Assembly (NCBI GenBank): GCA_040386815.1
Contig: JAZKET010000034.1
Location: forward strand, 61,236 to 125,235
From: Bacteroidota bacterium
GTDB lineage: Bacteria > Bacteroidota > Bacteroidia > Sphingobacteriales > Sphingobacteriaceae
DNA: 64,000 nucleotides
Direction of reading: 5' to 3'
The translations under genes and the position numbers were made by a program. Below are positions 11,645-25,820 of this stretch, piece after piece; position 1 is the first letter of the stretch, and each line of letters starts with the position of its first letter. Under the pieces are notes generated by a model, which was given only the letters and a program-made list of their open reading frames with translations, was not told where the DNA came from and ran no database searches.

Positions 11645-12250
11645 ATGCGCATAGGCACAAATATTTATAAAATGTTTTTTTTGTGGGGATCTCTGGTCTT
11701 CATAACAACGTCAGCATCGGCACAAAACCGCCTGCAAGAGTTTGACGACCGGATAATGATAGACCTGGCAGAGCATCGCACACCGCAGAAAACCGGGTTC
11801 ATGATGTTCATGTCAGACACTTACCGTTACGGCGATATTGGCATACCTGCGGGCCTGCTTATTGCCGGCGTAGCCACTAACGACCGCAATATGCGCGAGA
11901 ACGCGGGCTATATTGCCAGTAGCACAGCTATATCGTGGGGCCTTACCTTTTTAATAAAACATATTGTAAAACGCCCGCGCCCCTTTGTACAAAATCTAAA
12001 AATTGTCCCGGTTTATAAAGCGGGCAGTACGTCGTTCCCTTCGGGACATACATCAACAACCATCGCCACTGCTACAGCGCTTTCTATGGCCTATCCTAAA
12101 TGGTACGTTATTGCCCCGGCATTTATGTGGGCGGGTACTGTAGGGTATTCGCGTATGTATTTAGGGGTGCATTACCCTACCGATGTTGGCGCGGGTGCTT
12201 TGTTGGGTGCGGGTACTGCGTTGAGTATGTCGTTTATGCGGGTGCGGTAG
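11645..12250 (+). CDS. PAP2 family phosphatase
   Basis: KHIVKRPRP, SFPSGH, SRMYLGVHYPTDV. Confidence 0.93.
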   Translation: MRIGTNIYKMFFLWGSLVFITTSASAQNRLQEFDDRIMIDLAEHRTPQKTGFMMFMSDTYRYGDIGIPAGLLIAGVATNDRNMRENAGYIASSTAISWGLTFLIKHIVKRPRPFVQNLKIVPVYKAGSTSFPSGHTSTTIATATALSMAYPKWYVIAPAFMWAGTVGYSRMYLGVHYPTDVGAGALLGAGTALSMSFMRVR

Positions 12251-12519: not shown

Positions 12520-14883
12520 ATGTTCCCGCAATTCTTCGACAAACCCTTTCGTTTACAACTATCGTTCGATAAAATTATCGAGGGCTTAGAAGATACTGCC
12601 TCAAACGATAGCGGCTGGCGTAGTATGAATGCCCATTCGTTATTAGAGCAGGTTGCCAAACACCCTGAACTACGCGACGGTCTTGTTAATGAAGAGCAGG
12701 TTGCTGTTAACGAAGAACTGATTGCCGAATTACTTGCAGACCTGTTTCCGAAAGCCTTAACGCTAAACGAAATAAAGGCTGTAAGCATTCCTTTTCAAAG
12801 CCTCATTTTTAATCATACCCAACGCTTTAAAAATATTTTGAAAGATGCGGGGTCTGATTTTGAGATCAATATCCGCGATTTTGGCGATCAGCAGTTGTAT
12901 GTAATGAGCTGCTGTATCATCCTTAATGAATTTTATAACACCAGGCTTGATTTTAGCAAGCCCATGTTTTATGATATACCTACGGCTAACGGCGTTATGC
13001 GCCATTACCGCATTTTATATAATGCCGATTTTCTGGAGATTTTAGAGACCGACAATTCGCCTAAGCTAACACAGGCAGATATTGATGAGTTGATGGATAA
13101 CTTTGACGATGTTGAACTGTGGAGGCAAAAAATACCACCGGGCAGCTACCTTATAAAAGGCTTTGGCTTAATGACTTTGGTTGATGTTACTGTTGAGAGC
13201 GCGCTGTCAACCCTTAAAAGTAATTTACTGGCCAACTATTCATCGCCAGAGGTTAAAGAAAGTTTGTTGTCAATTTTTAGGTCGATATATGGTATACCCG
13301 ATATGCGCATGGGCTTTACCTTGTTTGACAAAAACGAAGAGAAGTTTTTAAACGTACGTTTCGGGCCCGATTTTCATAGCTTTTTACTGCCCTACCAAAA
13401 GGCGCACGATACAGAAAAGATCCTGTGCGATAATTCTTTTAATTGCCTGGTGCATGAGCATCATTATTTCGCGGTGTCTGATGTGGCGCGTTATGTTGAG
13501 GAAAACCCTGAAGATAACTTCGGTAAGCATTTCCTTGAACAAGGCATTATGAGTTTCATCCTTGCACCAGTAATTAAGGATGGTGTTTTATTAGGGATAC
13601 TAGAGCTGGTATCGCCACGCATACGCGAGCTGAACAGCGTTACTGCCAACAAGCTGGATATTGTAATGCCGTTTCTGGTAGATACAGTAGACCGCAAGAT
13701 GAATGAAATGCAGAACCGCGTGCGGGCTGTCATTCAAAACTACTACACCACGCTGCACCCCAGCGTTTACTGGAAATTCCGTCGCGAAGCGCAAAATTAT
13801 ATCGAGCATAACAATAACAGTTTGGCTTACACGCTAAAAGAGATCAAATTTAAAGACGTTTATCCGCTTTACGGGCAGGTTGATATCAGCGATTCCTCTC
13901 TCACCCGTAACCTGAGTGTGAGTAATGATCTGGGGAACCACATGGCACGTTTGATCCAATTGTTAAAAGAGATCAATAAGGCCGGCAATAAACCGCACGT
14001 AACGCAAATATTGTTCGACCTTACTACTTTCTCTGACGAGTTAAAGCAGAGCATACGTGCGGATACAGAGCAGTTTATACAGCATTATATTGAGGACAAG
14101 GTGCACCCGGTGCTTACCGCCGCTGCCGTAAACGCTAATTTTAAAATACAGGTAGATAATTACTTTAAACAAGCCGATAGTTTAAAGGGCGATTTCCACG
14201 CTAACCGCCGTAATTACGATAAAACACTGTCGCTGATCAATCAAAAACTGGCTGGTATTCTGGACCATCGCCAGGCCGAGATCCAGGAGTTTTACCCGCA
14301 TTATTATGAACGCTTCAAAACCGATGGGGTTGAGCACAATATGTACATTGGCGAAACTATTGCACCTGATCGGGAATTTACGTTGAAGGATCTGCACCGT
14401 TTACGCTTATGGCAAATGCGGGTAATTGCCGAAATGGAAATTGAGCAGTATGATCTGAAAAGCTTGTTGCCATATTCGTTAGGTGTAACGTCGCTGATAC
14501 TGGTTTTCAGTACGCCGATAGCTATCCGTTTCAGAATGGATGAGAAACATTTTGATGTGGACGGCGCTTACAATATCCGCTACGAAGTAATTAAAAAGCG
14601 GATTGATAAAGCTCATATTAAAGAAAGCACCGAGCGTATTACCAAGCAAGGAAAGATCACCATCATCTACTCAAAAGCCGAAGAAGAAACAGAGTACATG
14701 GGCTATATCAAAATTCTGCAAGACGAAGGCGTACTGGCCGACGATGTAGAACATTTTGAGGTAGAAGAACTACAAGGCGTAGCCGGCCTAAAAGCCTTGC
14801 GGGTTGGCCTTATCCACCATGATCAAAACCTGCTGGCGCACCGTGCCGCAAGCTATGACAAGCTGTACGATAGGATAAGTTAA
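12520..14883 (+). CDS. GAF domain protein with a putative divergent class III nucleotidyl cyclase C-terminal domain
   Basis: GAF-like segment SFILAPVIKDGVLLGILELVS. C-terminal motifs LYGQVDISDSS, RFKTDGV, KHFDVDGAYN, GKITII and ELQGV follow the cyclase order. The cyclase call is inference. Confidence 0.8.
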   Translation: MFPQFFDKPFRLQLSFDKIIEGLEDTASNDSGWRSMNAHSLLEQVAKHPELRDGLVNEEQVAVNEELIAELLADLFPKALTLNEIKAVSIPFQSLIFNHTQRFKNILKDAGSDFEINIRDFGDQQLYVMSCCIILNEFYNTRLDFSKPMFYDIPTANGVMRHYRILYNADFLEILETDNSPKLTQADIDELMDNFDDVELWRQKIPPGSYLIKGFGLMTLVDVTVESALSTLKSNLLANYSSPEVKESLLSIFRSIYGIPDMRMGFTLFDKNEEKFLNVRFGPDFHSFLLPYQKAHDTEKILCDNSFNCLVHEHHYFAVSDVARYVEENPEDNFGKHFLEQGIMSFILAPVIKDGVLLGILELVSPRIRELNSVTANKLDIVMPFLVDTVDRKMNEMQNRVRAVIQNYYTTLHPSVYWKFRREAQNYIEHNNNSLAYTLKEIKFKDVYPLYGQVDISDSSLTRNLSVSNDLGNHMARLIQLLKEINKAGNKPHVTQILFDLTTFSDELKQSIRADTEQFIQHYIEDKVHPVLTAAAVNANFKIQVDNYFKQADSLKGDFHANRRNYDKTLSLINQKLAGILDHRQAEIQEFYPHYYERFKTDGVEHNMYIGETIAPDREFTLKDLHRLRLWQMRVIAEMEIEQYDLKSLLPYSLGVTSLILVFSTPIAIRFRMDEKHFDVDGAYNIRYEVIKKRIDKAHIKESTERITKQGKITIIYSKAEEETEYMGYIKILQDEGVLADDVEHFEVEELQGVAGLKALRVGLIHHDQNLLAHRAASYDKLYDRIS

Positions 14884-14897
14884 ACTCTTTACTTTGT

Positions 14898-14985
14898 TGT
14901 CATTTCGAAACGAGGAACGAGTGAGAAATCTTATCCTCGCGATTTGGCATCCGTATAAGATCTCTCGCTATGCTTCGAAATGACA
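14898..14985. repeat. Palindromic repeat TGTCATTTCGAA...GAGAAATCT...AGATCTCTC...TTCGAAATGACA
   Basis: 12-bp terminal inverted repeat plus inner arms, between convergent genes; may act as a terminator. Confidence 0.75.
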
Positions 14986-14998
14986 TTTTGTTTTAACC

Positions 14999-17536
14999 TC
15001 AAAATCTAAACCCAGCCGTGATATAAGGATACGCGCCCTCTTTTGAGAAACCAACCACACCCTGTATCAATATCAGCTGCGCCGGTAAAAAAAAGACACC
15101 ACCGCCATAACCCATGTGCCAGGTATCAGAGTTTTCGCCCGGCGACCATACACGGCCGACATCATCAAACCCAACCAGCCCAACAGTGCCCGGCAACAGG
15201 TACGACGTAAAATCAAACAGCTTTACTCTTACCTCAAAATTGTTAAAGGCCATGGTTTTTCCGGTGAAGCGCCACTGATAAAAGCCACGTAAATTGTTGT
15301 TACCGCCCAATTTTAATTGCTGATAGTACGACGCGTTACCTACAGTTGTGCCTATACCTGTACGGTTGCCAAACACCAGTTTATAATTATCGCCGGGATC
15401 ATACAGAAAGCTGAAGTCAGACTCTATCTGCCCATAATTATGCGCATCGGGGTTTAGTGATTTCATGGCGCTGAAACTGGTTGTCCATAAAATACCCGAG
15501 TGTTGCACAATGTTCTTATCGCGTGTGTCTAAAGTAAATGCGCCAACTATACCCACATTACCCTGGCCGGCAAACACATTTTCTTTCGGATGAGCAAGGT
15601 CGTAATCTTTCAAAAAACGGGTTTGGTTATCGTCCCTGTCGCCGTTGTAGTATTGGGCAGAGACACCAGCGCTTACCGTCCAGTTGTTATCATAAGTATG
15701 CCGCAAGCGGATATCGGCATTTATCAGGTTATAAACGTTGCGGTAATAACGAATGCGTTTGCCCTCTTCATTTACAAAAACGCTGTTGTTTCCCACACCA
15801 AAAAAGTTGCTTACAAAGTTTGGCCCCCGGTTGGTTATGTTTACTATCAGGTCGTTCTTTTTTACAGCTTGCTTAAACTCGCCCTCGTAATTTAACCACA
15901 ATGAGCTTACGCCAAGGCCATAGTTTGCCGTAAAACTTTGCCTAAACGCATACGGATCTTTCTTAAAACCCTGCTTTTGCCATACCAGTTTGGTGATAAG
16001 CTGTAAGCCGTAGTCTTTATTATAACTACCTAAAAACAGTGGCTGCAAAAAGTCATACTTAAAATTCTTGTTCAAGTATTTATTCACCATCGTATCCGTT
16101 GACAAACGGCGGCGGGCGAAACCGCTTTCAGGCAGGTTGTTCTTCTCATCGCTCCGGTCATAAATGTACCGGTTGCCGCGGCCGGTGATATTGCTGTCAA
16201 CCATAAAGTTGTCCTTATCATCGCCACCCACCATCCTGATCTTTATAGGCGAACTGTTTTTGCCATGCACCGCAAAATAATCTTCATTACCCTGCCCGTA
16301 CAGGCGCACTTCTTCGGTAACTTTAGGGTCGAAAGTGCGCTCGTAAATAACATTGTCGCGCTGGCCCTCTTTGTTTATTTTGGTGATGGTTACCTTAACA
16401 CTGCCATCCTGCTGGTTGGTGATGTCAAAATATTCGTGCTTATCTGTGCCCGGAATATCTACTTTATTTGATATAAAGCGGTAATACCTCATTGCTTGCC
16501 GCTTAAGCACATTACGGCGTGCAATCATTTTGCTGACGATCTCCTGTCCGCTTATTTTATAAATATTAGGCGGCATTAATTTTATCGCCCTGGTAATCAC
16601 CTCATCGGTAAGCTTGGTTTGTACAATATTGATCTGCTCTTCCCAATCTTTTTCATTCAGGCCATTTAAAAAGAAACGGTCGAAATTACGCGCGTTCAAA
16701 TTCCAGCGTCTTACAGAGCGGATATGATCTTCATAACTCTGAAATTTCGACATCAGCAAATGCCTTGACACCAGCCAGGGCATAACGCCTGATGTGCTGT
16801 AATACACCTGGTCCCTATCCCTTGGTATAGGCTCATAAACACTGCCTTTATCGGTTTTTATCTTCTCCCAGCGCCATTGATCCTCGTGGCGGTCCCAGTC
16901 GCCCAGCAGCATATCCAGCAGGCGGGCACGCAGCACCGTTTTCTGATTTACGCTGTTATCGTTATCCTCTTTTAATTTTTCGAAGGCTTTGTCGGTGTTA
17001 TCTGTTTTCTTCGCGTCAAGCGGCTCTCGTTCTTCAAACAAAAACACCTGGTTGGCAAAGTCTTTTCTAAACTCGCCCAGGGCAGGGTCATCGGGTACGA
17101 AAACAATCTCGGGATTAGCGTGCGGCACGTTCAACGCTTTTGCCAGCGGCGGTACGGTAACAGCAGCAAAAGGGTGTTCGGTAACTATCTGATCATCCAA
17201 AATAGAGGCCGCGATGGTTTTTCTCAGCGTTGGTGGCAACACGCGTTCAGGGTATTTCTGGATAGAACGCAGCACCCACTCCTGCCCGGTTTTATCTTCC
17301 AGACGTACAGATTTGGTTTGCATACCGCCGCCACGCTCTGTAGCTTTCAGTCCTCCTTTTTCTTTTGTGATACGAAACACGCGCATTTTAACCGGCGCCG
17401 CCCAAAGCTTGCGGTAACTTTCGCCACTATCATACCTGGGTTCAATAGCCACGGTAATGCTGTCGCCTTTTATCTGCGCAAACGTTTTTGCAGATATGGC
17501 CAAGAGGAAAATCAAAAGCAGGTAACGTTTTCCCAT
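14999..17536 (-). CDS. Omp85 (BamA/TamA-like) outer-membrane protein with an N-terminal atypical-kinase-like domain
   Basis: Signal peptide; GGGMQT, GDWDRHEDQ and PRDRDQ kinase-like motifs; GxGxDxF beta-repeats; barrel with LGGNNNLRGF lid-loop motif and terminal GFRF. Confidence 0.82.
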   Translation of the reverse strand: MGKRYLLLIFLLAISAKTFAQIKGDSITVAIEPRYDSGESYRKLWAAPVKMRVFRITKEKGGLKATERGGGMQTKSVRLEDKTGQEWVLRSIQKYPERVLPPTLRKTIAASILDDQIVTEHPFAAVTVPPLAKALNVPHANPEIVFVPDDPALGEFRKDFANQVFLFEEREPLDAKKTDNTDKAFEKLKEDNDNSVNQKTVLRARLLDMLLGDWDRHEDQWRWEKIKTDKGSVYEPIPRDRDQVYYSTSGVMPWLVSRHLLMSKFQSYEDHIRSVRRWNLNARNFDRFFLNGLNEKDWEEQINIVQTKLTDEVITRAIKLMPPNIYKISGQEIVSKMIARRNVLKRQAMRYYRFISNKVDIPGTDKHEYFDITNQQDGSVKVTITKINKEGQRDNVIYERTFDPKVTEEVRLYGQGNEDYFAVHGKNSSPIKIRMVGGDDKDNFMVDSNITGRGNRYIYDRSDEKNNLPESGFARRRLSTDTMVNKYLNKNFKYDFLQPLFLGSYNKDYGLQLITKLVWQKQGFKKDPYAFRQSFTANYGLGVSSLWLNYEGEFKQAVKKNDLIVNITNRGPNFVSNFFGVGNNSVFVNEEGKRIRYYRNVYNLINADIRLRHTYDNNWTVSAGVSAQYYNGDRDDNQTRFLKDYDLAHPKENVFAGQGNVGIVGAFTLDTRDKNIVQHSGILWTTSFSAMKSLNPDAHNYGQIESDFSFLYDPGDNYKLVFGNRTGIGTTVGNASYYQQLKLGGNNNLRGFYQWRFTGKTMAFNNFEVRVKLFDFTSYLLPGTVGLVGFDDVGRVWSPGENSDTWHMGYGGGVFFLPAQLILIQGVVGFSKEGAYPYITAGFRF

Positions 17537-17541
17537 AGGGG

Positions 17542-18405
17542 CTATTTTTTAAAAGTAAATTTCAACACGTTACCGGGCGTTATCTCATCCCCCTCGTTGC
17601 TGATGTATAAATTATGCTGATTATCAAAAGCCAAACCTTCCGGCTGTAAAAACAGCGCCGGATTAAGCGAATAGACCCCTTTTACTTTAAACGCGGCATC
17701 GGCTATCACCAATAATTTATTGATAGATGCTACAATGAACCACTCACCCGTACCTGGATTTTTTGCAAATGCCGAGGGGCGAAACGCGAATTTCTTTTTG
17801 TTTACCTGTGCTTCAATAGGCTTAGTGTCTATACTAAAGCCACCGGCTGGCGTAACCACGCCGTTAGCTGCCAGTTTAAACTTGTAGCCGGCCGTAGTTC
17901 GGACTTTATCGCCGCCACAATCTTTACACAATATATAAAGCAGGCCGGCTTTTTCATCGCCATACATGCTCTCATACTCGCCTTTGGGTAACAGGTCTTT
18001 TACCTCAACCACATTTGCTGCTGCTTCAGACCATACCTGGTTAAACGGAAAAATATATAGTGTGCCGTTACTCTTAAGCACTACAATCTGGTTGCCCAGT
18101 ATGGTAATATCTTCGTAATCGCCGCTTTTAGCAAAACGGCTGTATTTAGGCGTTTCTTTGCTGCCGGGTTTAAAGTAAAACACTTTCCCTTCTTCATCCT
18201 GTTCGGCAAACAGCATATCCGGCTTGCCATTATGAAATGTAATGCCCGATATCTCGGCCAACGCGTCAGACATATTGTCCTTTACCGGACTATTCAGATC
18301 ATACCCCGGCGGAGTAGGATAGGTCTTTTTTTCAAAACAAGCTATACCAGTTAACATGGCTAATACGATACAAATTATGGCTATAAATCCTTTTAAACCT
18401 TTCAT
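17542..18405 (-). CDS. SdiA-regulated/YjiK-like beta-propeller lipoprotein
   Basis: GIAC lipobox; EISGIT, AEQDEEG, DYEDIT, QPEGLAFD. Confidence 0.8.
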   Translation of the reverse strand: MKGLKGFIAIICIVLAMLTGIACFEKKTYPTPPGYDLNSPVKDNMSDALAEISGITFHNGKPDMLFAEQDEEGKVFYFKPGSKETPKYSRFAKSGDYEDITILGNQIVVLKSNGTLYIFPFNQVWSEAAANVVEVKDLLPKGEYESMYGDEKAGLLYILCKDCGGDKVRTTAGYKFKLAANGVVTPAGGFSIDTKPIEAQVNKKKFAFRPSAFAKNPGTGEWFIVASINKLLVIADAAFKVKGVYSLNPALFLQPEGLAFDNQHNLYISNEGDEITPGNVLKFTFKK

Positions 18406-20420
18406 GCTTTACTTTTCAAATATTGATAAACCCAGCGTTGCGATTGTACAGCAGGCTCAGTTACTTCAACAGGTACATTTTCTATTTTTTCATTAAGCCA
18501 TACGGCTTGTACGTTATCCGTTAGCTGAATGTTAATGATATCCATCACCTCCTGCTTAATCTCCTTATCATACACCGGGAAACACACCTCAACCCTACGA
18601 TATACATTGCGGTTCATCCAGTCTGCCGAACCCATAAAAACCTCGGGCTGCCCGTTATTCTCAAAAACAAACACGCGGCCATGCTCCAGGTATCTATCAA
18701 CAATCCGTTTAATGGTAATGTTTTCGCTCATCGCTTTTGCGCCCGGTATCAGGCGGCAAATGCTGCGCACAATCAACGACACCTTAACCCCTGCATTTGA
18801 TGCATCGTACAGTTTACTGATAAGCTTGCTTTCCTCCAGGTTGTTTAATTTTATGGTGATGGCCGCAGGCAAACCTTTTTGGGCATTGACAATCTCGCGG
18901 TCTATCAGCTCAAAAAAGCGTTGCTGTAAACCAAACTGCGCTACCAGCAAATGCTCAAATTTTATCAGATCTGCCGATTTTGGCTTTTCGCGTTTACGCA
19001 GAAAAATAAACAGCAACTCCACCTCGCGCAGTATGGCCTTGTTGGCTGTCATCAATATATGGTCGGTGTAAAACTCGGCCGTATTCTCATTAAAGTTGCC
19101 GGTTGATAGCAGGCCATAATATTTTATCCGGTCATTCACCCGGCGCTTTACCAGCGCTACCTTGGCATGTACCTTTAGTGCGGTTACGCTATAAATAATC
19201 TCGGCGCCGGCGGCTTTAAGGCGGTTGGCCCATTTAATGTTGTTAGCCTCGTCAAAACGAGCTTTCAACTCTATCAGCACTGTAACCTTTTTACCTGCGG
19301 ATGCGGCGTTTACCAACGCGTTAACAATCCTTGAATCTTTTGCTACGCGATACAGGGTGATATAGATCTCTTCTACCGCCTCATCCAAAGCGGCCGCGTT
19401 AAAGAAACGCAGAATGGTATCGTACGATTGATAAGGCGTATTTATCAGCAGATCTTTGCGTTCTATCTGATCAAAAATGGCTTCGTCGGCGCTTAATCGT
19501 TTATATATCGTCGGCCATTTATCGTACTTCAAATTTGCCTGACTTAGCGGGAAAGCAAACAGATCTTTCAGGTTATGATAATTGCCGCCCTCCACCAGGC
19601 TCGATGGCTCTATCGACCAGCTTTCGCAAACCATCTGCAAAATATTTTCGGGGATACCGGGCTGGTGCAAAAAGCGGGTGGCTATACCCAGATCGCGCTT
19701 TTGCAATTGTTCTTCCACCTGCTCGGCCAGGTCGCCGGGATACTCGTCTTTCAGGTCAAGTTCCGCGTCGCGGGTTATCTTGAAGGCGTAGCAGCCGGTA
19801 ACGGCCTCATCTCTAAATAGCTTATCCAAATTATAACGGATAATATCATCTAAAAACAAGATGTAGGTTTTGTCGCCCTCGTCAACCTTATAAAACCTTG
19901 GCAAATCCGGGGGGATATTTAGCACCAGTACTTTCTCTTCGTCCCCGCCCAGGGTAATTAAAAAATACAGCTCGTTATTTTGGGGGAAGAATTTCTTTTT
20001 GGGCGATAGTTTAAAGGGGCGCAAAAAGGCCATCACCTGGCTAAAAAAATAATCGTTCAGCTGGTCTACCAATTTGGCCGGAGGCGGCTGATTAATTAAC
20101 AGGTGAATGTTACTCTCCTTCAACTGCGCTATCACTTTGGTTATGCCTTTACCAAAATCATGCTGTTGCTGCATAATCAGTTTTTGCGCTACCGAAAGCG
20201 GATCATCAACCACACTGGTGGTAGTGGTTAGTTTGCCCAGCTTATCCATAGCCTGCAGCACGGGCATACGCACCCGGTAAAATTCATCCAGGTTCGACGA
20301 GAATATCGCCATAAAATTTACGCGCTCCAGCAGCGGCACATCACTTTGCAAAGCCGTTTGCAAAATGCGCCCGTTAAAGGTGAGCCAGCTAAGGTCGCGG
20401 TCAAAAAAAGCGTAAGCCAT
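18402..20420 (-). CDS. ppk1: Polyphosphate kinase 1
   Basis: DRDLSWLTFNGRIL, SSNLDEFYRVR, TLYRV, IELKARFDEANN, LKVHAK, TGNFN, DRYLEHGR, SADWMNRN. Confidence 0.97.
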   Translation of the reverse strand: MAYAFFDRDLSWLTFNGRILQTALQSDVPLLERVNFMAIFSSNLDEFYRVRMPVLQAMDKLGKLTTTTSVVDDPLSVAQKLIMQQQHDFGKGITKVIAQLKESNIHLLINQPPPAKLVDQLNDYFFSQVMAFLRPFKLSPKKKFFPQNNELYFLITLGGDEEKVLVLNIPPDLPRFYKVDEGDKTYILFLDDIIRYNLDKLFRDEAVTGCYAFKITRDAELDLKDEYPGDLAEQVEEQLQKRDLGIATRFLHQPGIPENILQMVCESWSIEPSSLVEGGNYHNLKDLFAFPLSQANLKYDKWPTIYKRLSADEAIFDQIERKDLLINTPYQSYDTILRFFNAAALDEAVEEIYITLYRVAKDSRIVNALVNAASAGKKVTVLIELKARFDEANNIKWANRLKAAGAEIIYSVTALKVHAKVALVKRRVNDRIKYYGLLSTGNFNENTAEFYTDHILMTANKAILREVELLFIFLRKREKPKSADLIKFEHLLVAQFGLQQRFFELIDREIVNAQKGLPAAITIKLNNLEESKLISKLYDASNAGVKVSLIVRSICRLIPGAKAMSENITIKRIVDRYLEHGRVFVFENNGQPEVFMGSADWMNRNVYRRVEVCFPVYDKEIKQEVMDIINIQLTDNVQAVWLNEKIENVPVEVTEPAVQSQRWVYQYLKSKA

Positions 20421-20421
20421 G

Positions 20422-21696
20422 TTAGTTAGCTAAAGGCGCGTCGTTATGCAGCGTTGAGGCTATAATATATGCCGCCACAGCAATGATCAACCCAAACATA
20501 AATATGTTATAAGCTACTCTTAAAAAGCGATACTTCCGGCCCAACACCACGCCCTGGCTGTATACGTCCTTTATCAGCGTGCCGTATAAAAAGCCTCGGT
20601 CATCCATCACTTTAAGCATGCCGGCGGTATACTCTTCCAACCCCATTTTATAAAAATTACCAAAGAATAGCAGGTTAACCTTTTTATCGTCAATATCCTG
20701 CGTAGTAAAAGTCCCTTCGGGGATAGCCGGGCGGGTAGCCAGTATCGAAAATATCATAGACAGCAAACTCACCGTCAGCAATATAAAACTCGGTATAGCC
20801 AGGAATGCGTTTTCCTCTAGCTTACGCAACACCAAACTGATAATGGCCGACAGGATAATAGAGTTAACCGTAATTAAAATATGAGCCTTATTATCGGCCA
20901 TATCGCTCAAGCGCTGGTTATTGCCCGATGTTATTCTGAACATGGTTTCAATGCCTTTGTCCGGCTTGTTTTTTTTCTCTTCTTTCTTTTTATCTTTTTT
21001 CTCGTCGGCAATAACTACTACCGGCACAGCTTGCACGGCAGCCTCGGTCTTGCTTTCTGCTTTGGTTTCCTTTGCAGCCTCTGGCTTATCTTCGGCAATG
21101 GTTTCCTGTTGTTTTTTCATTAGTTTGTCCAGGTTTTTTTTCTGCTGATCATGCAGTAACAACTGTGCGTAATCTGTAAAATAGGTATGTGTCTGTAGCA
21201 GCTCAATATTCTTCTGGCGCCAATGGTCCTTATCAATATCCAGGTGTTTTATAATATTAAACTCCTTGCGCAGCAGCTTGCTTTTGTCGGCAAAGTCATC
21301 GGTACCTAAATGGAACAGATCAGCATCGCACATAATTTGCTGCAGCTTACCGGTAGGTTTTTGAGGGATACGGGTGGCAAGAATACAATCATGCACTTTG
21401 GCAATTACCGCTTCATCAACCTTAAGGTGTTGTAAATGCGACACGGCCAGTTCGGCACCGGCAGCTTCGTGGTCGGCTTTGTCAATCAGGTAGCCAATAT
21501 CATGAAACCATGCGGCGGTTACCACCACAAAAAAATCTTCGTTGTTAAGCTGGTAATGGTTGGCAATTTGCGTGGCGGCGTCAACAACGCCTTTGGTATG
21601 TTCCAGATCATGGTACAGCAAATCGGCATCATGATGGCCGTCAAAATACCTTAAAACGTATTGCTTAACATCGCTTAATAATTGCTGATAATTCAT
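20422..21696 (-). CDS. HD-domain phosphohydrolase fused to a Pycsar-effector-like (PycTM/DUF5706) membrane domain
   Basis: HD motifs YHDLEHT, AWFHDIGY and DADLFHLG; charged linker; MADNKAHILITVN, NLLFFGNF and KYRFLRVAY with three TM helices. ATG 21696 is preferred over GTG 21720. Confidence 0.88.
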   Translation of the reverse strand: MNYQQLLSDVKQYVLRYFDGHHDADLLYHDLEHTKGVVDAATQIANHYQLNNEDFFVVVTAAWFHDIGYLIDKADHEAAGAELAVSHLQHLKVDEAVIAKVHDCILATRIPQKPTGKLQQIMCDADLFHLGTDDFADKSKLLRKEFNIIKHLDIDKDHWRQKNIELLQTHTYFTDYAQLLLHDQQKKNLDKLMKKQQETIAEDKPEAAKETKAESKTEAAVQAVPVVVIADEKKDKKKEEKKNKPDKGIETMFRITSGNNQRLSDMADNKAHILITVNSIILSAIISLVLRKLEENAFLAIPSFILLTVSLLSMIFSILATRPAIPEGTFTTQDIDDKKVNLLFFGNFYKMGLEEYTAGMLKVMDDRGFLYGTLIKDVYSQGVVLGRKYRFLRVAYNIFMFGLIIAVAAYIIASTLHNDAPLAN

Positions 21697-21721
21697 AGAA
21701 AAGGTGTTGGTGTTGCTCACC

Positions 21722-21729: not shown

Positions 21730-21841
21730 ATGTTTATATCTGTATTTTGTTTGGTGGATGGGTGTTTTTGTGGGATGAACGTTTAAACATATTTTAAAGA
21801 CGGTTTAAACCAAGCGATGTTACCTAACATATATTTCAGCA

Positions 21842-22019
21842 AGGCTGACCCAGAGGGTCAAAACCTTTGTAGCAAAAAAAGACAAAGCTGTTATGACCCG
21901 GAGGGTCTACCCTTAACGTAAGCATTGATCCCTGTAAAACCTGCACAACGGTAGCCCCGCTGGGGCAAAAAAGAAACTGTAAATTTTTCTACAAAGGTTT
22001 TGACCCTCCGGGTCAGCCT
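21842..22019. repeat. REP/REPIN-like element A (about 36-bp terminal inverted repeats)
   Basis: AGGCTGACCCAGAGGGTCAAAACCTTTGTAGCAAAA versus the reverse complement of TTTTTCTACAAAGGTTTTGACCCTCCGGGTCAGCCT (2 mismatches); internal TGACCCGGAGGGTC copy; GTAG motifs. Confidence 0.85.
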
Positions 22020-22043
22020 ATTATTGCGGTCCGGTATTATAAT

Positions 22044-22265
22044 AGGCGTGTTCGAAACATTTTAAAAGCGACTTTTAAAAGGCGTAGCCTCGACAAATAT
22101 TGTAGCCGCGGTTTTCAACCCGTGGTATACATCATCCATCGAAAGCGAGTGCCATCGGCACGGCCCGCATTATATGGATCGTGCCGATGGCACTCGTTTC
22201 TTGTGTTTGATTTTTTCGCCGGGTTGAAACCCGGCGCTACAATATGAGTCGAGCCGCTGGCTCTT
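22044..22265. repeat. REP-like element B, copy 1 (222 bp)
   Basis: Nested hairpins including GAGTGCCATCGGCACG...CGTGCCGATGGCACTC; near-identical to 22570-22791. Confidence 0.9.
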
Positions 22266-22273
22266 TATTTACG

Positions 22274-22541
22274 GCGGTCCTCGATTACAAATTCAGACCA
22301 CCTTCAGCCACTCTGCTGCTACCAAGCTGCTCCAGAGGAGCAAAATGTCGGTAGAAAAATCCTCTTAAATCTATATTTCGCGCCGTTAGGTGCGAAACTT
22401 AGGCGACCAACGAAACCCCTGATCATAGCGGATAAGTTATGTACCTACGGCACATATAAATTACTTTATATTATTTGCTACCGACATTAAACCCCTACGG
22501 GGTTATCTTCAAATGGCTAAGGGTGTTGATGTTATCGCTTC
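22274..22541. repeat. REP-like element C, copy 1
   Basis: AATGTCGGTAG...CTACCGACATT arms and CCCCTACGGGG; near-identical to 22887-23152. Confidence 0.9.
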
Positions 22542-22569
22542 GTTTTTATGTTAGTCGGGATTTATAATC

Positions 22570-22791
22570 AGGCGTGTCCGAAACATTTTAAAAGCGACTT
22601 TTTAAGAGGCGTAGCTTCGACAAATATTGTAGCCACGGGTTTTAACCCGTGGTATTTGTAATCTATAGAAGATGGAGTGCCATCGGCACGGCCCATTTAA
22701 ATGGATCGTGCCGATGGCACTCTGTTTTGTGTTTAATTTTTTCGCCGGGTTAAAACCCGGCGCTATAATATGTGTCGAGCCGCTGGCTCTT
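22570..22791. repeat. REP-like element B, copy 2
   Basis: Direct repeat of 22044-22265 with scattered substitutions. Confidence 0.9.
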
Positions 22792-22886
22792 ATTTTCAAT
22801 TTGCAAGGTTTCGAACACTCCTGATTTGCAATCCGTGTATCCCAAAGAATAAAATCACGGCCCGGGATTACAAATTCCCACTTACC

Positions 22887-23152
22887 GCGGTCCGCGATTA
22901 CAAATCCGAACCAACTTCATGACTCTGCTGCTACCAAGCTGCTCCAGCGGAGCAAAATGTCGGTAGAAAAATCTCCCACATCTATATCCCGCGCCGTTAG
23001 GTGCGAAACTTAGGCGACTAACGAAACCCTTGATCATAGCGGATAAGTTATGTACCTACGGCACATATAAATTGCTGATATTATTTGCTACCGACATTAA
23101 ACCCCTACGGGGTTACCTTCAAGATGGGTAAGAATGTTAATGTTATTGCTTC
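22887..23152. repeat. REP-like element C, copy 2 (end overlaps the CHAT stop codon)
   Basis: Direct repeat of 22274-22541. Confidence 0.88.
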
Positions 23153-25766
23153 ATTTGTCTACGGATAACAAGCCATCCCCCCAAACCGAACACAATCGCC
23201 GCAATAGCAATTTGCAAAGGCACCCACGAATTTGCCGCCGGCAAATTCACCACCTCATCTGCCCCGGTTAACACCAGCGTATCCCAATAATATGGCAGGT
23301 ACAATGCATCGGCAGACTGCGCATGGTTTAGCCAGTTCAGCTTGGCATTGTGCAGGGCGGCAGCTGTGCTTTGGCTCTTCGTTAAACCCGCGTACATATC
23401 CGCCGTAATGCGCGCCACCGCATCGTCATTAACATTCCATAACCCCGATACCGTGGCCGCGGTACCTATAGCTATAAAACCACGCGACAGGCTGATAATA
23501 CCCTCGCCTTGTGCCAATGTGCCGTCGCCGGTGCGGCAGGCGCTTAGCACTACCAGGTTAGGCTTACGGGAACGCGCCAGCAGTTCAAACAAAAACAGTT
23601 TTTCTTTACCAAAATCAAGCGTAGGTTCATGGTTGGGGCCAGATAGGTAGGCGTGCGTGCTGATGTGCAGGGCAGCCGAATTTTCAAACGACTTAAAAAA
23701 CGAAACAGTATTTACGTCGTCATCATACAAATAATTGCCTTCAACCAATTTCTCAATAGCGGCCGACTCCTGTTTTACGGCCATAATGGGTTTATCGTCG
23801 GCACTGTTATGCGTCATAAACAAACCGCTAAAACTGCCATTGTATTTAATGAGAAAGCGTAACTCACAGTTAACTGCCTGATAAGGTAGGGCCATAGCGA
23901 CGGGGCGGGTTGAAACTTGCTATCGGTTATCAAGCCATCAAAAGACAAATAACCCAAAACATCATCAGGCACAATGCACAGTTTTTCATTTTTCTTTAGG
24001 GCGATATTTGCAAACAGCGTTTTATAAATAGCGTTCGACTGTTGAAAAAACACCTTAGGCGCGTTCACCATTCCAGCCGGACCATTACGATAAAAGGTAT
24101 CTACAAAACCGGTTACCTGCTTGCGGAATTGTTTTGCCCCATCTATGCGGTTAATTGCCCACGCCGACCGGTTTTTAACTTCAATAACATACAAAGCTTC
24201 CGCCCCGAAAAAGAACTCCAATACATGCGCATCAACAGGCAATTTCTTCAATATTTCATCTGCCGATGCTACCGAACCAACGGCCGTTTCACGATATTTT
24301 TTATTGAGCAGGGCCAAATCAAACTTCAAGGCATCTATCTTTTTTTGATATTCGGCCGGGTTGTTTTCCGTCATCATCAAACGCTCATTATAGCTAATGG
24401 CGCGTTCCATATCCAGCTTGCGACGCAGGGCTGCGTCGTTCTTGCCAGCCGCCAGGTTGTGGTAGGTTTTCTGTAGGTCATCTGCCAGCGTACGCGCCTT
24501 GGTTTGTTCGCTCACCGCTAATATCAGGTTTAGATATTTTGGCTGTTTGGTTTGCGCGTAAAGGTTGTAGGCTATTTCAATGGTTTCTTCGGCCAGTTCT
24601 TTTCCCTCTTTTTGCAGGCGTTCCTTGGTTTTATTGTCGGCAAATTCCTTGCGCATTTTATCAGTAGCCAACAGCGCATAGCGCATGTTTTCAAGCGCCA
24701 AAGCAGGCTGCTTTAGCGCCATGTAGGTAAGCGCCTTTTCATGGAAGATGTCAACCAGCTTATTCTCGCCATAAATTTTGTTTGCCGGGGTGATGTTCTG
24801 CACTGTGTTAATGCGCATAATCTGCAACGCGCTGTTTAAACAATTTAGCGCGTTTTGCCATTGCCCCTGTAAACGACATATCTTACCCAGTTGTGTAGTC
24901 AGATAGGCTTTTTCGCGCTGCCTGCCGTCAGCATAATATTTGTTAAGCAATTGCAGCGCTGTTTTAAACTCAGCTTGCGACTTATTTAGCTGGTTGGACT
25001 GCAAATAAATATTACCCAACGTAGTGTGGCTGCCCGTTAAACCATAAGCAGTTTCGCTGTCTATATTTTTTCGTGTAGCGATGTTTTTAATAAGCAGGGC
25101 TTCGGCTTGCTTTAACTCATTTTTTTGGAGCAGTATATCGGCCAGGGTATTATTCAGATTAAACCGTACTTGTGGGTCTTGCACCAGTGCCAGTCCTTTA
25201 GCTACACTTTCCCCGGCGTCATCATATCGCTCAATATTGTAGTATGATATGGCCACGTTGCTGTACAGGGCGGCTACCTTATCGGCCTCGGCAGTTTTGT
25301 TAAGCGCCGCAATGGTGTTTTGCTGTATAAAAATAGCCCGCTCATAATCGCCAAGGCGGGCGTAGTTATTGCCCAGCGGCTTTACTATGTATTCGGCAAA
25401 ATCAAACGCCGCCACGTTATGCTTTTTATAAAACGAATAAGCATCCTCATAACTGTTGATAGATTGCAAAATGTCGCCGGCCTGTAGTTGGTTATAGCCC
25501 TGGGTGGTTAGCAAGGTAAGCCAGGCTATTTGTTCATCGGCAGTCTTGGGTTGTCGCCAGGCTTGTTTGCGGGTGTCTGTTAAAAACGATTGCTGATTGG
25601 GATTAGCATTTGCGTAATCAATGTTGGCGTACAGCCATTCGGTTAAATTGTCCTGTTTTTTTAGCCCATTTAATATAGATTTTTTCGGATTTTTCTGGGC
25701 AAAACTCTGCAAACTGCAAAAGAACAGGCAAAAAAAAAGGCTGATTTTCCTAGGATTGATGAGCAT
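23143..25766 (-). pseudogene. TPR-CHAT (caspase-like) protease split by a frameshift near 23840
   Basis: ORF 25784/25766-23814 has a signal peptide, TPRs and the start of CHAT (IVPDDVLGYLSFDGL). ORF 23895-23143 has the rest, with catalytic LHISTHA and VVLSAC, SLW-like SGLWNV, PYYW and a C-terminal TM helix. The two frames overlap by 82 bp. Confidence 0.8.
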
Positions 25767-25820
25767 TGGCAGGATGTACGGCAATGCTAAAATAGGGAAT
25801 TTTCGCCAGTAAACGCGGGG

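Follow-up and report, generated by a model that had tools for sequence, protein, structure and literature searches.

A group of genes in a 64,000-nucleotide stretch of DNA from a member of the Sphingobacteriaceae (phylum Bacteroidota; contig JAZKET010000034.1, positions 61,236 to 125,235; hereafter the window) may encode a signalling circuit in which a cyclic nucleotide monophosphate (cNMP) gates a membrane pore of the PycTM type, a kind that anti-phage suicide systems employ, and which is tied to phospho-enzymes of the cell envelope. We put the probability of this non-defence reading at roughly 0.5. The conserved core of the gene set consists of a putative class III nucleotide cyclase with a GAF domain (the GAF protein), a PycTM membrane protein with or without a fused HD domain, and an outer membrane protein of the Omp85 type that bears a kinase-like domain (kinase-Omp85). 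A beta-propeller protein, the polyphosphate kinase PPK1 and a PAP2 phosphatase are accessory. The module is apparently both undescribed and widespread in Bacteroidota. No description of it was found in the literature, although a mention in the original Pycsar paper or in Burroughs 2015 is still possible. Flavobacterium johnsoniae (L055) and Chlorobium limicola are among the culturable species that have it.

Linkage within the genus and across the phylum

The genus is represented by 41 genomes. Of these, 35 encode the GAF protein and 35 encode PycTM, and the same six genomes lack both. The two genes lie no more than 10 kb apart in 33 of the 35, and in the two exceptions they are on different contigs; when one genome (G202) is left out, the values are 34/40 for presence and 32/34 for adjacency. 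An earlier note on the window had listed a failure of the GAF protein and HD-PycTM to co-occur beyond chance among the grounds for refuting its proposal; the observed linkage is far above chance, and the proposal was not refuted on this point. Five of the six module-less genomes (99–100% complete) were also searched for kinase-Omp85 and the propeller, and neither was found. Twenty loci of the genus all contain HD-PycTM and the GAF protein, accompanied by kinase-Omp85 (19), PPK1 (18), PAP2 (17) and the propeller (13), and the genes stay together throughout in at least 10 different orders. The GAF proteins of the genus fall into two deep clades (27–33% identity between and 49–83% within), both of which are found beside PycTM, and a single-clade topology is rejected (approximately unbiased test, p-AU 7e-6). 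PycTM is 60–77% identical across the genus, above the 53–64% of PPK1. Ratios of nonsynonymous to synonymous substitution (dN/dS) relative to the nearest relative are 0.04–0.075 for five genes, with synonymous sites of the cyclase saturated, and the module genes are under strong purifying selection.

In a sample of 201 genomes from the phylum, all 30 that encode the GAF protein also carry the module's PycTM subfamily, within 15 kb in 19 cases. Both PycTM and kinase-Omp85 occur in 69 genomes, only PycTM in nine, only the kinase in 12 and neither in 111. Within 10 kb of PycTM, the 78 genomes examined have kinase-Omp85 in 54 cases, a cyclase of any type in 48 and both in 45. All counts in these 10-kb neighbourhoods are lower bounds, and the chance expectation for one gene within that distance in a 4.2 Mb genome is ~0.5%. 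The GAF protein is also found in 12 of the 13 genomes of one family (f3), and HD-PycTM occurs at 61 of 80 further GAF loci. Because related genomes are not independent, the weight of the linkage rests on independent recruitments. In other lineages, this neighbourhood is occupied by unrelated ordinary (Pfam-positive) class III cyclases; the recruited cyclases are of three unrelated types. In Balneolaceae, a gene for a cyclase-TolB-TPR protein is flanked by Omp85 and a gene for PycTM only; two loci of this family contain cyclase-PycTM fusions (L140:8245-9315 and L141:8348-9436), which would make small single-gene test objects. In Chlorobiaceae and one Ignavibacteriales genome, the neighbourhood contains a membrane-anchored cyclase.

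The gene set is very probably a functional module. Passive synteny of unrelated genes would fit the dominance of one gene order among Flavobacteriaceae loci, but it is largely refuted by the variety of orders in a single genus, the joint absences and the recruitment of unrelated cyclases, and it appears highly improbable. Several recurrent neighbours in Flavobacterium (NA37, pRiA4 ORF3 and a 352-amino-acid (aa) protein) were considered as members and rejected; they look like local synteny.

A predicted cyclase fold in the GAF protein

In searches of Pfam, NCBIfam, PADLOC and PDB sequences, the GAF protein was not recognized as a cyclase. An AlphaFold2 (AF2) model built from 142 diverse homologues has a mean confidence (pLDDT) of 94. 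Its GAF domain is recognized via a Z score of 14.7 to 3k2n, with a root-mean-square deviation (rmsd) of 3.0 over 168 residues. The top cyclase structure match of residues 442–770 is AnPycC (8jsz; Z 12.0, rmsd 3.8, 209 residues aligned), and similar matches are obtained with Cya2 (2w01; Z 11.7–11.9, rmsd 3.0–3.3, ~185 aligned), human soluble guanylate cyclase (Z 11.9), and CyaB and CyaC (Z 11.3). These alignments of 180–210 residues span nearly the whole of the cyclase chains (Z 11.3–12.0, rmsd 3.0–3.8). Approximately 130 helical residues (459–588) sit between the two catalytic aspartates, and it is probably because of this insertion that sequence methods miss the cyclase.

The aspartates were placed by motif and secondary structure, D455 at the end of the first strand (consensus DIRGSS) and D602 in the hairpin. 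Both are 100% conserved in the 142-sequence alignment, as is R694, and D679 (99%), N685 (96%) and K600 (80%) are also well conserved. As modelled, the GAF protein has a class III nucleotide-cyclase fold in which both metal aspartates are invariant. On visual inspection, the residues just ahead of D602 are reminiscent of the EKIKT motif of adenylyl cyclases, and D679 is reminiscent of their adenine-reading aspartate. K600 and D679 would then be an adenine-type pair, which suggests cAMP; judging from these residues, the product is probably a purine cNMP, most likely cAMP. On the strength of the fold, the invariant aspartates and the replacement by ordinary cyclases, the cyclase call of the earlier note is supported; the protein is likely to be active.

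The family is large, with more than 1,000 clusters at 50% identity (E up to 1e-10), and amounts to a cyclase family missed by sequence annotation. A lone member occurs in Haliovirga (Fusobacteriota; L195:9995-12316), and Atlas clusters of the family also list Thermodesulfobacteriota and Cyanobacteriota, so the family extends beyond the module.

The HD-PycTM protein

The PycTM domain is matched by Pfam PF18967 at E 9e-35 (119.8 bits, cut-off 27.2) and by the PADLOC PycTM model at E 1e-16. The HD domain also scores above the Pfam cut-off (E 5e-6), and the protein contains three hydrophobic segments, in agreement with the earlier description of an HD domain fused to a PycTM with three transmembrane segments (TM). 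Motifs of the HD domain are of the YH..H, HD.G, I.AT and ADx type, and its metal ligands (H29, H65, D66 and D124 in 424-aa numbering) are kept in 59–60 of 60 sequences. Weak matches to the PDEase_I profile are found in 14 of the 60 (best E 7e-4), and to the Ppx-GppA_III profile in three. Members of the same HD subfamily lie near ordinary cyclases in other contexts (L125–L130) or are fused to them (L128). Longer PycTM fusions were sought and none turned up, though this counts as weak evidence. HD-PycTM was not found in phages, and on plasmids it was found only on non-mobilisable ones. In a sample of 61 genomes, most PF18967 matches belong to the PycTM subfamily of the module, an indication that 'Pycsar effector' labels in Bacteroidota mostly mark genes outside defence.

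Two further observations concern the HD subfamily. A fusion of this HD domain to a YitT membrane domain lies beside or close to class III cyclase genes at L125:1813-3273 (a receiver-cyclase), L126, L127, L129 and L130, an arrangement that suggests a second cyclase-HD-membrane module. Some phage HD proteins, from H1 (MF360958) and from one Atlas cluster, weakly resemble the subfamily, which is no more than a lead.

The kinase-Omp85 protein

The window protein matches the Omp85 model NF047779 at E 2e-23, below the cut-off, and its homologues match Pfam Omp85. The kinase domain is not seen by Pfam, NCBIfam or PADLOC. A structural model of residues 21–490 (pLDDT 91.6) resembles PI4KIIalpha (Z 14.6, rmsd 4.7, 257 residues aligned), CotH (Z 14.2, rmsd 4.0, 242 aligned) and CtkA (Z 12.4), and a Gly-rich loop, K94, D213 and D240 are invariant among 50 sequences. 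By predicted structure, the Omp85 protein carries an atypical kinase of the CotH/PI4K type that keeps the catalytic Lys and Asp residues. Three Gly/Asp motifs occur in a beta-rich linker ahead of the barrel, and 112 of 124 homologues end in Phe.

Most homologues also carry an N-terminal calcineurin-like phosphoesterase domain (PF00149). The window protein lacks this domain, and a search of the genome using the module's profile did not find it. In Chlorobiaceae, the short form of kinase-Omp85 is often accompanied by a phosphoesterase encoded in its own neighbouring gene. At kinase-Omp85 loci without PycTM, no recurrent replacement membrane protein was seen. Compared with its nearest relative (L197), the window copy is shorter by nine in-frame residues immediately ahead of the kinase domain (window position 17426), which reflects either a deletion in the strain or an assembly artefact. 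Elsewhere, three tandem paralogues consist of the kinase only, with no barrel (L266:6126-11151).

Accessory genes

The SdiA-like propeller falls below the cut-off in the window protein (E 5e-4) and above it in homologues. Across the phylum it is found near PycTM in 29 of the 78 genomes (10 families), and PAP2 lies within 10 kb in 16 (seven families). PPK1 is near PycTM in nine of the 78 (six families) and at four of the 80 further GAF loci, with none in family f3, Chlorobiaceae or Balneolaceae. The earlier note had treated five families as one fixed set; these counts do not sustain that view, and kinase-Omp85 is the most constant partner. The genome has a second PPK1 elsewhere, 40% identical to the module copy. 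The module PPK1 was not found in five module-less relatives, where only a distant housekeeping PPK1 was seen.

A module for polyphosphate or phosphate, in which PPK1 makes polyphosphate, HD-PycTM trims or passes polyphosphate or phosphate, and the cyclase is merely a regulator, would account for the joint loss of the dedicated PPK1 paralogue and the module. It would also fit the proximity of HD-PycTM to PPK1 in six families (once with SixA between them), the few Ppx-GppA_III matches and the many phosphatases nearby. A loose parallel exists in the pel operon of Streptococcus intermedius, which encodes an exported CotH-like kinase together with the polyphosphate polymerase VTC and a small membrane protein (10.1101/2024.04.20.589940); that polymerase and membrane protein are non-homologous to those of the module and no cyclase is present, making this an analogy only. 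Set against the rarity of PPK1 in these neighbourhoods and its absence from whole families, such a module seems unlikely. At one locus (L146:495-12496), HD-PycTM, SixA and PPK1 precede a tandem pair of GAF-cyclases and a phytase-like gene.

Proposed function

In the cNMP circuit that we favour, the cytoplasmic GAF protein would be a very divergent class III cyclase, with its activity and product judged from fold and residues. PycTM would oligomerise into a cNMP-gated pore in the inner membrane, by analogy with PucTM, which forms a hexamer with a channel of ~15 Å (10.64898/2026.08.12.744502). The fused HD domain might hydrolyse the nucleotide locally, making pore opening brief and not lethal. 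The output would serve the co-encoded envelope phospho-enzymes, i.e. the kinase anchored by Omp85 (in most cases together with a calcineurin-like phosphoesterase), the propeller lipoprotein, PAP2 and sometimes PPK1. The linkage of these genes is directly observed; the direction of coupling between pore and envelope enzymes is what we infer. A more specific version, in which the PycTM oligomer is a cNMP-gated conduit in the inner membrane, supplying ATP or polyphosphate as phosphoryl donor to the kinase outside the cytoplasm so that kinase and phosphatase act in a regulated cycle on lipids, glycans or proteins of the envelope, is speculative and rather improbable. If it were true, Pycsar effectors would have branched off for defence from a housekeeping channel or be related to one. 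The circuit would give PycTM-type pores a role in physiology, and a kinase beyond the inner membrane a possible route to phosphoryl donors.

Several observations weigh against this circuit. Numerous genes for kinase-Omp85 occur by themselves; PycTM is missing from the examined DNA at 31 of 109 GAF-cyclase loci, among them a clade of 11; and HD is absent from most Balneolaceae loci. The best solved matches of the HD domain are YedJ-like or uncharacterised, and class I phosphodiesterases in the PDB match it only at E 0.08–0.4. The earlier note's idea of HD as an eraser of cNMP is weakly supported: the faint PDEase_I matches and the repeated association with cyclases speak for it, the YedJ-like structures against it, and the odds of a cNMP phosphodiesterase appear about even. 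For the GAF protein, hhalign against ordinary cyclase profiles gives no significant link. Its catalytic hairpin is two residues short, N685 and R694 are nine residues apart (usually four for the transition-state Asn and Arg), and the position four before R694 is Ile or Val, not the usual Asn; the catalytic register, including this spacing, was read by eye and is uncertain. The altered Asn position, the long insertion and the missing sequence-level link would suit a pseudo-cyclase, or an enzyme whose cyclase-like fold produces some other nucleotide signal. The invariance of both metal aspartates and the arginine, together with the interchangeability of the protein with ordinary cyclases, makes this quite unlikely.

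Comparison with known systems

The module resembles Pycsar and Pucsar-TM in pairing a class III cyclase fold with a PF18967 three-TM protein. However, its cyclase carries a GAF domain together with a large insertion, is not PycC and is interchangeable; its effector contains a fused HD domain; and the module is linked to an outer-membrane kinase. The PADLOC PycC models give no match to the GAF protein at E 0.1, although they do match the ordinary cyclases weakly. Pycsar makes cCMP or cUMP and protects against phage; in the GAF protein, K600 and D679 look by eye like an adenine-type pair. Whereas Pycsar genes are adjacent in one operon, cyclase and effector genes in the window are convergent and 5.5 kb apart; in Flavobacteriaceae they are adjacent and mostly convergent. 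Pycsar is patchy, fast-evolving and found in a defence context, whereas the module is near-core and slow-evolving. A scan of its immediate neighbours revealed no defence genes. In cyclase family, operon layout and evolutionary pattern, the module falls outside Pycsar. Neither 'Bacteroid' nor 'GAF' occurs in the text of the Pucsar preprint (10.64898/2026.08.12.744502).

A non-canonical anti-phage system, an option raised in the earlier note, would have the surface parts sense infection, the cyclase fire and PycTM depolarise the cell as in Pycsar/Pucsar. The PycTM family match, the cyclase-PycTM fusions, the exchange of cyclases and the loss of the block in 6/41 genomes are consistent with this. 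Immune cyclases, however, are described as fast-evolving (10.64898/2026.08.12.744502), whereas the module occurs in ~85% of the genus and its GAF protein in nearly all f3 genomes, its PycTM is the most conserved part, and its genes are under strong purifying selection. With no PycC match, no defence genes nearby, no phage copy and no mobilisable plasmid copy in addition, a defence system of this kind is improbable, and the module probably has a non-defence function.

Kinase-Omp85 homologues share PF00149 and the barrel with the 'Metallo' Omp85 subfamily (Heinz and Lithgow 2014, PMC4104836). In the portion of that source consulted, the subfamily is described as a metalloprotease, with neither a kinase domain nor a gene neighbourhood mentioned; the window copy, in contrast, lacks PF00149 and keeps the kinase. 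The kinase shares its fold and catalytic Lys and Asp with the atypical kinases CotH, PI4KII, CtkA, HipA and Fam20, and differs in its fusion to an Omp85 barrel. Cyanobacterial CyaB1 is an example of a GAF-regulated class III cyclase. As in such enzymes, GAF lies upstream of the cyclase in the module protein, which has no detectable sequence similarity to ordinary cyclases. Class I HD phosphodiesterases share the HD motifs, and their similarity to the module HD domain is marginal.

Gene organization in the window

The open reading frame (ORF) coordinates agree with the earlier description of five genes, with the GAF gene converging on the four minus-strand genes across 115 nt. Gaps among the latter are 1, -4 and 5 nt, from which they look like one operon (Table 1). 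HD-PycTM is 432 aa long from a GTG start; the database protein starts at the ATG at 21696 and has 424 aa. The closest named homologues come from Mucilaginibacter. Promoter and terminator scans at the locus gave only chance-level results.

Table 1. Module genes and domains in the window
Feature	Position	Strand	Basis and remarks
PAP2-family phosphatase	11645-12250	+	Pfam PAP2 E 7e-23; accessory; outside the 12520-21720 region of the earlier note
GAF-class III cyclase-fold protein, 787 aa	12520-14883	+	N-terminal 220 residues, GAF, split cyclase domain; AF2 model, fold searches, 142-sequence alignment
GAF domain, residues 222-403	13183-13728	+	Z 14.7 to 3k2n; profile matches to solved GAF domains
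Class III cyclase fold, residues 442-770	13843-14829	+	Helical insertion of ~130 aa (459-588); invariant D455, D602, R694
Kinase-Omp85, 845 aa	14999-17536	-	Signal peptide, atypical kinase, Gly/Asp-rich beta linker, Omp85-type barrel; no metallophosphoesterase domain
CotH/PI4K/CtkA-like kinase domain	16466-17389	-	Invariant Gly-rich loop, K94, D213, D240; fold match and conservation
SdiA-regulated/phytase-like beta-propeller	17542-18405	-	Predicted lipoprotein, Cys23 after hydrophobic stretch; accessory
PPK1, dedicated second paralogue	18402-20420	-	TIGR03705 above cut-off; accessory
HD phosphohydrolase and three-TM PycTM fusion	20422-21720	-	Pfam, PADLOC, hydrophobic segments, metal ligands

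Upstream of the operon, window positions 21780-23130 contain nested REP/REPIN-like palindromes in two composite units of ~530–610 nt, and copies of one unit are scattered over the genome (~20 sites, 18 contigs). The TPR-CHAT gene beyond them (23143-25784, minus strand) consists of two overlapping ORFs split inside the CHAT domain, probably due to a frameshift or assembly error. Further along, the GC content drops from ~0.45 to 0.38 across 28000-56000, a long run of mostly minus-strand genes that is possibly an acquired island.

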